From: Escherichia coli
Lineage (GTDB): Bacteria > Pseudomonadota > Gammaproteobacteria > Enterobacterales > Enterobacteriaceae
Assembly: GCF_041886205.1 (NCBI RefSeq)
Contig: NZ_CP169030.1
Length of the DNA stretch: 64,000 bases
Direction: 5' to 3' (one strand)
Positions 15,001-17,359 of this stretch are shown piece by piece. Position 1 is the stretch's first letter; the number at the start of each line of letters is the position of its first letter. A program made the position numbers.

Positions 15001-17359
15001 CATTCACCAGAACCAGCACCCAGACCTGAGAGACATCGCCCGGTGAACATAACGCCAGGTGAAAACGTTCGTGAGCAGGCGTGAAACGGACCTGGACGGG
15101 GGAAAAGCCGCCAAACTCGCTGCCATACTCGCCGTTCATCGTCCAGTTATCCGGCGCATCCAGCTCCCGCATCACGGCATGTGTGAGTTCACGACGTTCA
15201 TCACTTCCGACAGCCCGGATGTCTTCATATTCCTGTGCGCTCATGGTCTGTAATACATTCAGGGTCAGTTCAGTTTTCATCACGGTATCTCCCTTGCTGC
15301 CGCCCCGTCTCCGGCGGGGCGGTGTGGTTGTTCATCAGGCGGCATCAGCCAGGTTATCGGTGCGTTCAGTGGTATCCGTCTGTGGATGTGGTGCACACAT
15401 CCAGCCAGGCACCCAGCGGTTGTCTTTCATATGGTGCTCTGCATGTTCAGCCGCATCGCTTTTCTTCATCTTCTCCGCGTCCCGTGCGGCACCGGACAGT
15501 CCGGCGTCATTCAGGGCGTCGATAATCTGCGGCTTTTTCAGGTGTCCGAAGAAGTTTGCTTTTGTCGGCTGCCACCAGTCACGCATGTGGAATCCGATAG
15601 CGGTTTCCAGCGAGTCAAGCGGACTGCGTGACGTGTGACCACACTCACGGGTCTGGACACCGTTAAGGCTGCATGCGGTGCAGAAACTGAGCAGGGACAA
15701 CAACACCTCCTGGCGGAGTGACAGGAACGTCGTCATGTCCCGTGACCATCCCTCCGCCAGCAGGGCTGCAAGACGGGCTTTTTCTGCCATCAGCGCCATG
15801 AATGCGGCACCTTCCTTCCCCGACGGCGCATCGCTGGTCAGCGAAGAATGCCCACATTCCAGACGAATTTTTGCGGGATTGCTGTACGCTCCGCTGCCAA
15901 ACACATTCAGGCAGAGCGTCCATGCCAGCAGTGCCAGGGATTTGTCCGGCTGCTGCATCAGTGCTGCCTGGACTGCCAGCGTGCGTTCGGAAGACATTTT
16001 CGTCAGCAGCGGCAGACTGATTTCCTCCACTGACGCTTTTTCCTGCACCTGTTCCGTGCGGTCAGCGTCGTCAGCCGCATCATCCTCACTGCGTAACTGC
16101 ACACCACGCTGGACACATACGTTTCCATAACGCCAGGACACCACCACGCCACTTCCGGCACGCATCTCCGGCGTCCACGCCCTGACCTTCGCCATGCAGT
16201 CAATCAGCTTCATTTCTGCTTCCGGCAGGTCGGATTCCTCACACTGGTTTTCCAGCGCGTCGTAACGAGCCATCAGTTCGTTCAGGCGTTCGTCTTCCGC
16301 CTCCGTCAGCACCGCTTCCGGCTCCGGCAGACTGCGGTATGCCCGGGCATCTTCACGGCACTCACCGACAGGCTCCATGCGTCCGGCGCACCATCCCCAG
16401 CCTTCGGCTTCCCGAAGGAACTCTGCGACAGCCTGGAGTTTTTCCAGCAGGGCAGCATCGAGCGCCACGCAGTCCACATAGCCACCCTCGTTGTCGCTGA
16501 ACAAATCGGTGCGCAGTTCATCTGGCGAGAAGGCATCAGCCCCCACGAAGCGGAATTTACTGTTCCCCGCCACCGCCACTTCACTTTCGGTCACCAGACG
16601 ACGAATGGTCTGTACTTCCGGTTTTCCGCCCCATCCCGACTGACAGGCAGCTTCAAACACCTGTACCTGACGCGCGGTGTCGTTCTCCAGCGCCAGCGCC
16701 TGACAGTGCTCTGTGGTGATGCGGTCTTCTGCCAGCGCATCGAGGATGACAGGCGCAAGGTCAGCCAGTTTCAGCATTCGCTGAACGTGGCGAGGCGAAT
16801 AACCCAGCAAATCACCGATTTGTGCAGGTGTTTTGCCTTCCTGCGCCATTGCGCGGAATCCGGCAATCTGTTCAGCAGGGTGCATATCCCGACGATGACC
16901 GTTCTCGGTCATCGATGCAGCCGTCGCCAGTTCCTGCGGAATAATTTTCACGCGGACAGGCCAGTCAGCCGGAATGATGCCACGTTCTGCCAGCATATTG
17001 AGTGCTGCCAGTCTGCGACCACCTGCGGCGACACCGTAGCGGTCACCAGGCAGGGCATGAACAACCAGATTCTGCAGCAGGCCGACACCTTTAATTGACT
17101 CCGCCAGTTCGCTGACGGACTCCACAGAATACGGCACCGTGCGCACATTCAGCGGTGATTTAATCAGTGAAGCCAGCGGCACGCTCACTTCCTCCGTCTG
17201 CGCCAGCAGGGCAGACAGTGCCGTTTCCTGTGTTTTTGACAGTTTACGGCTGGATTTACGCCCCGTTTTTGCCTTAGACTCTGTAACTGACATATATTTC
17301 TCCTTTGACCGGGATGGTTGTATGTCTGCCGGACGCGTTCCCGTCCGGCACCTCTCTTA

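Follow-up and report, generated by a model that had tools for sequence, protein, structure and literature searches.

HerB in the leading region of an F-like Escherichia coli plasmid: a ParB-like protein that is probably a zygotic CTP clamp reprogramming the host chromosome

The window considered here, i.e., the whole stretch of 64,000 nucleotides from the Escherichia coli contig NZ_CP169030.1 (assembly GCF_041886205.1), harbors on its minus strand an open reading frame at 15335..17293, found by ORF calling, which starts with ATG and encodes 652 amino acids followed by a stop codon. This is exactly the leading-region ORF of the original prediction, and it is designated below as herB (yfjB, also “parB2”). 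Directly upstream, across a gap of 63 nt, lies yfjA (17357..17617, minus strand; Pfam DUF905, E 6e-33), and directly downstream, across a gap of 51 nt, lies psiB, the gene of the SOS inhibitor (14846..15283, minus strand; Pfam PsiB, E 4e-62). The operon opens with the plasmid ssb (17647..18225, minus strand; Pfam SSB, E 1e-36); with the start annotated in its relatives, the ssb product comprises 179 aa. The last gene, psiA (14131..14849, minus strand), is frameshifted: it is split between two frames, its partial PsiA Pfam match spans profile positions 81–236 only, and it differs from a related locus by a 1-nt deletion near 14742. The minus-strand order is hence ssb, DUF905, herB, psiB, psiA, and the predicted placement of the large gene between ssb and psiB holds, with one small gene intervening. 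With the exception of psiA, the ssb-yfjA-herB-psiB-psiA operon and its single-strand promoter (see below) are intact. The synteny herB-psiB-psiA...SLT-traM is retained around a homolog of about 40% identity. The same homolog lacks an upstream DUF905 gene, and the idea of DUF905 (yfjA) as a conserved KorA-like partner of herB is, on this ground, not supported.

A chance ORF is excluded, since the gene is carried by more than 5000 PLSDB plasmids and by 3377 of the 5426 complete E. coli genomes (~62%), in the latter nearly always on IncF-type resistance or virulence plasmids. Such a distribution implies that the function of herB bears on plasmid spread. The window's copy is a somewhat divergent allele: its best nucleotide identity is 95.3%, both in PLSDB and in the complete E. 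coli genomes, none of the alleles in the searched collections exceeds ~95–96% identity to it, and it is separated from the closest one by 51 synonymous and 29 non-synonymous codon differences. In public annotation, the gene is everywhere called a “ParB/RepB/Spo0J family partition protein”.

The position of the operon relative to the origin of transfer was inferred from a single exact match of GTGGGGTGTGGTGCTTT at 8156..8172 on the plus strand, flanked by the SLT gene on one side and the tra genes on the other, and taken here to be the oriT nic site. The search tolerated three mismatches, and on these terms one or more matches also turned up in 15 of 100 shuffled versions of the window, so the call rests on the exactness of the match and its location at the expected place. 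The motif being on the plus strand, it is the plus strand that is transferred (T-strand), and herB lies 7.2–9.1 kb into the leading region as measured from nic, i.e., in the early-transferred block where the original prediction had put it.

Upstream of ssb and adjoining it, there is a repeat of the Frpo2 type (18193..18926, plus strand), one of four ~600-nt repeats in the leading region; it hardly differs from the sequence that lies upstream of ssb in F. Its plus strand folds as ssDNA with −112.8 kcal/mol (z = −6.8), and no sigma-70-like promoter was found on the coding strand between this repeat and herB. Judging from these features, the repeat, active as the plus strand, would drive the whole ssb-DUF905-herB-psiB-psiA unit. 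In F, the expression is zygotic and Frpo2-dependent (PMC9849209; PMC12672017); the F leading region was described as having two Frpo elements (PMC9849209), in contrast to the four Frpo-like repeats present here.

The product of the gene is identical to the YfjB protein of F (WP_000117173.1) at 604 of 652 residues (93%), over the full length and free of gaps, the identity per domain ranging from 92 to 95%. The 48 substitutions include 10 in the first domain (D1) and 5 in the second (D2), the rest falling into D3 and D4. F YfjB was characterized and renamed HerB in a preprint of July 2026 (PMC13370423), which assigns to the HerB family the proteins with at least 80% coverage of each of the domains D1–D4. 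The protein encoded in the window displays all four domains, the CTP pocket, the HTH residues, D3 and the helical D4, and its gene resides in the same leading-region, Frpo2-type context. Thus, the window gene is herB (yfjB, parB2) of an F-like plasmid backbone, and its protein has already been described. It shares with F HerB the length of 652 aa, the CTP-pocket and HTH residues, the four-domain architecture, the operon, and the Frpo2 repeat; the operon differs from that of F in the frameshifted psiA downstream.

The domain limits used here are borrowed from PMC13370423. The AF2 model (pLDDT 90.4) comprises four folded domains with the boundaries as published. D1 (aa 1–136; 16886..17293, minus strand) is the ParB N-terminal CTP-binding domain, and D2 (aa 137–235; 16589..16885, minus strand) is the ParB-type HTH DNA-binding domain; the matches above the Pfam gathering score are ParB_N at residues 43–131 and HTH_ParB at residues 136–222, and the product also passes the cut-off of NCBIfam TIGR00180 (parB_part). 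In D1, Box II (GGRRLAA, aa 91–97) and Box III (MTENG, aa 128–132) are identical to those of F; among 83 homologs of 27–55% identity, G91, R94, and N131 do not vary at all, and E130 and A97 hardly do (conserved in at least 90%). Residues 121–180, including R168, R172, and K175 of D2, the residues taken as DNA-contacting in the HerB family, are 100% identical to F. In Foldseek searches with the N-terminal 200 residues, the best matches were CTP- or CDP-bound ParB, Noc, and KorB (E 1e-10 to 1e-6). The predicted ParB/Srx N-terminus was therefore corroborated by both domain and structure searches.

The remainder of the protein bears out the predicted long acidic C-terminal extension in part. Residues 236–652 do carry a net charge of −26 (pI 4.7), but they constitute two folded domains rather than a tail (pLDDT of the C-terminal region ~90), and only the former of them is strongly acidic. 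It is the alpha/beta domain D3 (aa 238–417; 16043..16582, minus strand), confidently folded in the AF2 model, with a net charge of −21 and pI 4.25, whereas the helical D4 (aa 418–652; 15338..16042, minus strand), disordered in its last ~18 residues, is near neutral (−4). The matches to ParB structures in the PDB stop at no more than ~230 aligned columns; no ParB-CTD-like match was obtained for the C-terminal 416 residues, and D3–D4 had no relative among the solved structures, in line with the statement made for F HerB in PMC13370423.

According to the same source (PMC13370423), F HerB binds CTP, was crystallized with CTPgammaS-Mg, and dimerizes via a new C-terminal domain, D4 serving as a domain-swapped dimerization core and being responsible for nucleoid association. 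In the cell, it forms foci on the nucleoid, near quarter-cell positions, and its localization is independent of the plasmid. Mutations of R94, E130, R168, R172, and K175 each abolished or strongly reduced these foci; all five, and with them all positions mutated in that work, are identical in the window's protein. By ChIP, ~156 host chromosomal regions were bound; of these, just 20 were seen again in actual conjugation (4 of the 20 peaks being prophage loci), no enrichment on F was seen, no sequence motif was found in the bound regions and no loading factor is known. F HerB remodels host transcription and confers coherent metabolic phenotypes in a standard K-12 recipient, with most of the omics data obtained under ectopic expression from pTrc99a. 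In its natural setting, F herB is expressed from Frpo2 only in new transconjugants; its deletion increases the cost of plasmid acquisition by ~10% and leads to losing in repeated-transfer competition, while the transfer frequency is unchanged and plasmid positioning is normal. The work is a preprint, not yet peer-reviewed (PMC13370423).

Given the degree of identity and the identical functional residues, the allele from the window can be expected to resemble F HerB in CTP binding, formation of foci, ChIP enrichment, remodeling of the transcriptome, and lowering of the acquisition cost. We consider it quite probable that HerB is a ParB-like CTP clamp, expressed zygotically, which reprograms the host chromosome and thereby lowers the cost of acquiring the plasmid. 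The stem-loop promoter Frpo2 would exist only as long as the incoming T-strand is single-stranded; its activity being confined to the ssDNA T-strand, HerB would be made transiently, in new transconjugants. The homodimer held by D4 would expose two flexible arms, each bearing a ParB-type CTP-binding domain and an HTH, and would act as a CTP-dependent clamp that loads onto the DNA of the host chromosome in the absence of a parS-like site. It would then shift the expression levels of host genes, several hundred in number and for the most part metabolic or linked to growth phase, and the altered expression would diminish the transient cost in fitness that acquiring the plasmid entails. In this chain, clamp loading or sliding is the likely mode of DNA engagement, and the binding of HerB is the likely cause of the transcription changes. 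Weighing against this model, the fitness effect is modest (~10%), the functional data all come from the F allele and one preprint, the omics results were largely obtained with ectopic expression, few of the ChIP regions reappear in conjugation, and the window's allele departs from F at 48 residues.

An earlier-studied relative, ParB2 of pED208 (IncFV), is likened to HerB by its published description: as with F herB, its deletion has no effect on transfer, the T4SS was shown to translocate a Cre-ParB2 fusion, and the protein proved to have no part in suppressing the SOS response (PMC8406263). The delivery through the T4SS, together with the lack of a deletion effect, suggests that the expression and the route of entry may not be purely zygotic.

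If the CTP-clamp model holds, HerB exemplifies leading-region genes capable of reprogramming the host, beyond blocking its defenses, and endows the ParB family of CTP switches with a new output. The annotation of the gene in the window is confident: it is herB, neither “partition protein” nor “nuclease”. The function has been elucidated for the F allele, and the present analysis raises no question beyond those of PMC13370423; these concern the loading of HerB on DNA, the definition of its sites, and the role of D3.

The annotation as a partition protein, the TIGR00180 match, and the foci of F HerB near quarter-cell positions (PMC13370423) would suit a back-up ParB (“ParB2”) partitioning or positioning the plasmid itself, a reading we regard as very improbable. 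No ParA gene adjoins herB, its neighbors being DUF905 and psiB; the sole ParA-type gene, sopA, lies at a distance of 11.5 kb and belongs with sopB. There are no parS-like palindromes or repeats near herB: no recurring palindromes were found at 14000–18300, and, in the stretch from 9 to 32 kb, tandem arrays are confined to sopC and the rep-region repeats at ~30–31.5 kb, which we read as putative iterons. Of the features of a type-I ParABS ParB, HerB has the N-terminal CTPase domain and the HTH but lacks an adjacent ParA, parS, and the short C-terminal domain, the canonical version of which is replaced by D3–D4. Frpo2 being active on ssDNA alone, herB would, moreover, not be expressed once the plasmid is established in a cell; F devoid of herB is positioned normally, and HerB shows no ChIP enrichment on F (PMC13370423). 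A second partition system was accordingly rejected for want of a ParA partner and parS-like repeats and in view of the ssDNA-only expression and the normal positioning of the F deletion. The partition task has its own, separate unit, the complete sopABC noted in the original prediction (27161..29996, minus strand; identified by Pfam and tandem repeats), consisting of sopA (28821–29996, minus strand; Pfam), sopB (27850–28821, minus strand; SopB_HTH, E 3e-42), and sopC with 14 tandem 43-bp repeats (27161–27762; repeat search). SopB formally belongs to the ParB superfamily and is encoded on the same replicon, but the distinction drawn between the two proteins is well founded: their best pairwise BLASTP match has E = 19, SopB_HTH (PF18090) has no match in HerB, and SopB has SopA and sopC as partners whereas HerB has neither.

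The label “nuclease” goes back to the former Pfam designation of PF02195, and the ParB/Srx superfamily does include nucleases and Osa-type DNases. That HerB is a ParB-like nuclease processing or protecting the ends of the incoming strand during establishment, as had been supposed, could also be argued from the location of herB in the first-transferred block and from the weak Foldseek matches to sulfiredoxin (E 0.03–0.2); still, we find it hardly credible. The ParB/Srx fold is present, but the residues of the pocket are those of the CTP-binding class, HerB has the full CTP-switch signature together with the ParB HTH, every strong structural match is a DNA clamp with bound nucleotide, and there was no nuclease among the sequence and structure matches of the product. 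F HerB yielded crystals with CTPgammaS-Mg, bound the host chromosome and not F in ChIP, and left the transfer frequency unchanged when deleted; in PMC13370423, no nuclease activity is reported and the very word “nuclease” is absent. The motif class, the structural neighbors, and the published structure and ChIP data led us to reject this reading, whereas the other part of the suggestion, a role in establishment and not in partition, agrees with the deletion phenotype of the F ortholog (PMC13370423). It remains to consider an establishment factor with a real target other than metabolic reprogramming at large, e.g., xenogeneic silencing or nucleoid proteins, a chromosomal defense, or a prophage, the transcriptome change being a side effect of coating stretches of the chromosome; to this we assign a low but appreciable probability. 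Leading regions are enriched in anti-defense genes (PMC11541004), prophage loci make up 4 of the 20 in-conjugation ChIP peaks, the omics data on F HerB come from ectopic expression, and no tests in defense-proficient recipients are reported in the passages of PMC13370423 examined. Against it, the metabolic phenotypes are coherent and the acquisition-cost effect was observed in a standard K-12 recipient (PMC13370423), and no specific defense target is known for HerB. Membership in a known defense or anti-defense family was rejected, PADLOC giving only a sub-threshold match (E 0.0086). In PHROGs, HerB has a full-length match to phrog_7783, annotated as of unknown function.

The recurrent fusion of an H-NS C-terminal domain within the HerB family also speaks for a target of this kind. 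In a chromosomal Cupriavidus sub-clade, the H-NS C-terminal DNA-binding domain is fused after D4 (34 of the 120 top clusters); such a fusion points independently to nucleoid DNA as the target and in this respect also favors the clamp model. It is a small addition to what is known, not mentioned in PMC13370423, and Pfam detects no H-NS domain in the window's HerB. The fusion, the prophage ChIP peaks, and the lack of a motif in the bound regions are leads to the view, which we hold to be rather unlikely, that the HerB family is recruited to, or competes at, H-NS-type chromatin (AT-rich, horizontally acquired, prophage) and not metabolic loci. If this is true, the benefit would be like that of the “stealth” H-NS homologs, i.e., buffering of xenogeneic silencing when foreign DNA arrives.

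The reading of HerB as a CTP clamp acting on the host chromosome places it beside several known systems. KorB of RK2 is a CTP-dependent sliding clamp and a long-range repressor. This IncP plasmid protein (PDB 8qa8/8qa9) is likewise a ParB-family member with a CTP-binding N-terminal domain and an HTH that acts on transcription and not just on segregation; it differs in that it binds defined operators, which lie on the plasmid encoding it, and ends in a C-terminal domain peculiar to it (PF08535, not detected in HerB by Pfam), whereas HerB possesses D3–D4, is not known to have a specific site, and acts on the chromosome of the host. Noc of Firmicutes (PDB 7nfu, 7ol9) resembles HerB in that the CTP switch was repurposed from partition and serves many chromosomal sites, but its NBS sites are specific, it tethers DNA to the membrane, lacks D3–D4, is encoded chromosomally, and is expressed constitutively. 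Noc is also a top structural and sequence match to D1–D2. Sfh of R27 is a plasmid H-NS-like “stealth” protein lowering the acquisition cost rather than raising the transfer frequency. Its fold and mechanism are unrelated to those of HerB and its expression is not restricted to the zygotic stage, yet both proteins are plasmid-encoded and nucleoid-binding, and some members of the HerB family carry an H-NS C-terminal domain.

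The herB gene, named yfjB in the F literature and parB2 in pED208 (PMC8406263), occupies exactly the span claimed for it in the original prediction (15335..17293, minus strand, ATG start, 652 codons). The ParB-type N-terminus proposed there was recovered by domain search: Pfam ParB_N (residues 43-131) and HTH_ParB (136-222) both exceeded the gathering score, and the product passed the NCBIfam TIGR00180 (ParB/RepB/Spo0J) cut-off; matches to the PRTRC-ParB, Noc and RepB NCBIfam models were limited to the N-terminal ~200 residues and fell far below their cut-offs. The supposed long acidic C-terminal extension is acidic as a whole (net charge -26 over residues 236-652), but residues 238-417 account for -21 of this charge, 418-652 being close to neutral, and the region is folded and forms no tail.

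The window's protein belongs to, and is in effect another allele within, a family whose founder has already been described both structurally and functionally. Compared with the reference F plasmid protein WP_000117173.1 (gene at NC_002483, 59538-61496), it displays 604/652 identities (93%) and zero gaps, with a per-domain identity of 92-95% and 100% identity over residues 121-180. Box II (GGRRLAA, 91-97) and Box III (MTENG, 128-132) are the same as in F, as are R94, E130, R168, R172 and K175. The gene is widespread: a megablast search of PLSDB returned at least 5000 records, and almost all of the matches listed are at 90-95% identity in conjugative plasmids of Escherichia, Salmonella, Klebsiella and Shigella. 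The gene is present in 3377 of the 5426 complete E. coli genomes, and 4723 of its 4785 copies reside on plasmids.

The C-terminal half is as characteristic of the family as the ParB module. Residues 236-652 alone (domains D3-D4), searched against 1.84 billion 50%-identity representatives, gave 2080 matches with E <= 1e-3 and 1018 with E <= 1e-10; among full-length matches (600-700 aa), the alignment nearly always starts at residue ~200-260, hence the combination of ParB-N with D3-D4 is the family norm. In an alignment of 83 full-length family proteins (27-55% identity), G91, R94, N131, Q209 and W627 are invariant, and E130 and A97 are conserved in at least 90%, placing the CTP pocket under family-wide constraint. 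The AlphaFold2 model inferred from this alignment (mean pLDDT 90.4, pTM 0.73) is of low confidence only at residues 1-12, in the acidic linker ~405-420, in the loop 550-553 and in the last ~18 residues. Its top Foldseek matches in the PDB, with alignments of at most ~230 columns, were exclusively CTP-switch ParB relatives (E 1e-10 to 1e-4), e.g., Myxococcus, Bacillus and Caulobacter ParB with CDP or CTPgammaS, followed by Noc, KorB and PadC, in agreement with the predicted ParB-type fold; sulfiredoxin scored only E 0.03-0.2. A 654-aa homologue of ~40% identity retains the order herB-psiB-psiA ... SLT-traM, and its locus also harbors a separate ParA/KorB-type pair.

The function of this founding member, F HerB, is already known, albeit since July 2026 only and solely from a preprint (PMC13370423). 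According to the preprint, F HerB forms a homodimer of 146 kDa and comprises four domains: D1 (1-136, ParB NTD), D2 (137-235, HTH), D3 (238-417) and D4 (418-652). In the 2.6 A crystal structure of D1-D2, CTPgammaS-Mg occupies a Box I/II/III pocket (Box II comprising G91-A97, and E130 lying in Box III), and a 3.6 A cryo-EM map revealed D4 as a new domain-swapped, V-shaped dimerisation core (PMC13370423). In the same study, no HerB-sfGFP could be detected in donors, and only transconjugants showed nucleoid-associated foci, whose formation requires D4, R168/R172/K175 of the HTH and R94/E130 of the CTP pocket (PMC13370423). ChIP-seq identified 156 chromosomal regions with ectopic expression and 20 in conjugation, with neither a consensus motif nor enrichment on F, and RNA-seq recorded 361 induced and 505 repressed genes (PMC13370423). 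That the physiologically relevant target is narrower (a defence function, prophages or xenogeneic silencing, for instance), and that the broad transcriptome change stems in part from over-expression, seems rather improbable.

The genomic setting of the window's copy fits early expression in the recipient. Along the minus strand lie, in this order, ssb (17647-18225), the DUF905 gene yfjA (17357-17617), herB, psiB (14846-15283) and psiA, so the predicted placement of herB between ssb and psiB holds, with the DUF905 gene also intervening on the ssb side. The intergenic gaps of herB are 63 nt and 51 nt. Just upstream of its start is a Shine-Dalgarno-like AAGGAG. Four copies of a ~600-nt Frpo/ssi-type repeat (68-98% identity) were located at 10297-11027, 12805-13379, 18193-18926 and 21448-22021. 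The third adjoins the ssb start and is nearly identical to the sequence that precedes ssb in F, the single-strand promoter Frpo2; its plus strand, the only copy for which folding energy was computed, reaches -112.8 kcal/mol as ssDNA vs. -77.0 +/- 5.3 for shuffles (z = -6.8). The F nic-site motif has a single exact match at 8156-8172 (+), flanked by the SLT gene and the tra genes and 7.2-9.1 kb from herB; the plus strand is therefore the transferred strand and the template for the minus-strand leading genes. No sigma-70-type promoter was found on the coding strand between the repeat and herB. In F, YfjB is made while the plasmid is still single-stranded, as the same group demonstrated earlier, and the two fusions tested, to ssb and yfjA at the head of the yfjB-containing operon, depended on Frpo2 for expression (PMC9849209).

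Several further features were noted in the window. Two such elements, Frpo1 and Frpo2, are described for F (PMC9849209), vs. the four found here; among the units that the repeats would drive are hok/psi, ssb-herB, a DUF3560 and methyltransferase pair, and an anti-restriction gene. This uncharacterised leading-region pair (18992-20963, minus strand; 453-aa DUF3560 protein and 187-aa SAM-methyltransferase-like protein) lies between the third and fourth repeats and is common to many IncF plasmids. In the leading region between the first and second repeats, a two-gene toxin-antitoxin-like pair (11067-11716, minus strand) encodes a 104-aa product matching MqsA antitoxin and HTH_3 and, upstream, a 112-aa product with no Pfam match; no counterpart at this position appeared among the F features in the incomplete gene table of PLSDB. 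The psiA gene (14131-14849, minus strand) is broken into 47-aa and 177-aa ORFs in different frames by a single 1-nt deletion near 14742, as aligned with the closest plasmid, and represents either a pseudogene or a sequencing error. A 160-aa ORF at 25204-25686 (minus strand), whose match to the N6_N4 DNA methylase model is confined to profile positions 51-219, may be a copy of the leading-region orphan methylase that lacks the N-terminus.

Taken for a second partition protein, HerB would back up the sop system, which is complete on this replicon as had been stated: sopA (28821-29996), sopB (27850-28821; SopB_HTH E 3e-42) and sopC (27161-27762; 14 tandem 43-bp repeats, 86% matches) adjoin a RepE-type initiator gene. 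The sopC of F has 12 repeat copies. HerB is indeed distinct from the window's SopB, with no similarity by BLASTP (best E = 19). A back-up role is rejected, since neither an adjacent ParA gene nor a parS-like repeat was found near herB, the gene is not expressed from dsDNA, and the F plasmid lacking herB is positioned normally (PMC13370423). The same deletion raises the acquisition cost by ~10% and is outcompeted in a four-day conjugation competition, so the instinct of the original prediction, establishment over partition, was right. Its mechanism was wrong: a nuclease processing or protecting DNA ends is not supported, given that the pocket is of the CTP-binding type and the closest structures are those of clamps, and that in F the protein is not enriched on the plasmid in ChIP and the deletion leaves transfer frequency unchanged (PMC13370423). 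In pED208, a Cre-ParB2 fusion passes through the T4SS, and neither transfer nor SOS induction changes when parB2 is deleted (PMC8406263).

The HerB model gives the best explanation of the window's gene. The protein would be expressed zygotically, right after plasmid entry, act as a D4-dimerised, CTP-dependent DNA clamp, associate with host chromosomal regions with no need for a parS site and shift host transcription, thereby probably lowering the acquisition cost. Orthology, conservation of motifs and fold, and promoter context were shown here for the window's copy; the biochemical and cellular steps come from one preprint on the F allele (PMC13370423), whose authors inferred clamp loading or sliding and also that binding causes the shift in transcription.

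Fused homologues provide independent comparative evidence for nucleoid DNA as what the family acts on. In P0265, a distant HerB-family member of 700 aa, an H-NS C-terminal DNA-binding domain (PF00816, E 5e-14) follows D4, and in a search with this protein, 34 of the best 120 clusters (P0271-P0313 among the homologues) proved to carry the fusion; they are mostly from Cupriavidus, range down to ~40% identity and in several cases lie on multi-megabase contigs. Some of them are named “H-NS family nucleoid-associated regulatory protein” by NCBI, and one (locus L004, 5704-7806) resides in what looks like a prophage or ICE context with an S24 repressor and YdaT. H-NS goes unmentioned in the preprint (PMC13370423). 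The fusion also motivates the rather improbable reading of the family as recruited to, or competing at, H-NS-type chromatin.

At the right end of the window, the colibactin genes clbS-Q-P-O-N-M-L-K (44193-63948, minus strand) are 99.7% identical to chromosomal, ICE-borne E. coli copies. In the closest chromosome, clb belongs to an ICEKp10-like element whose genes run virB T4SS, coupling protein, mobC, clbS; in the window, it is likewise preceded by a coupling-protein-like gene (39742-41949), and a 396-aa ORF (41921-43111) is a candidate mobC by position. The 20-kb clb segment was found in no PLSDB plasmid, and of its 824 occurrences in complete E. coli genomes, 822 are on chromosomes. Here, a Tn3-family transposase gene (36231-39215) joins it to the F-like backbone, and an F-like conjugative replicon may carry the colibactin island or be fused with it.
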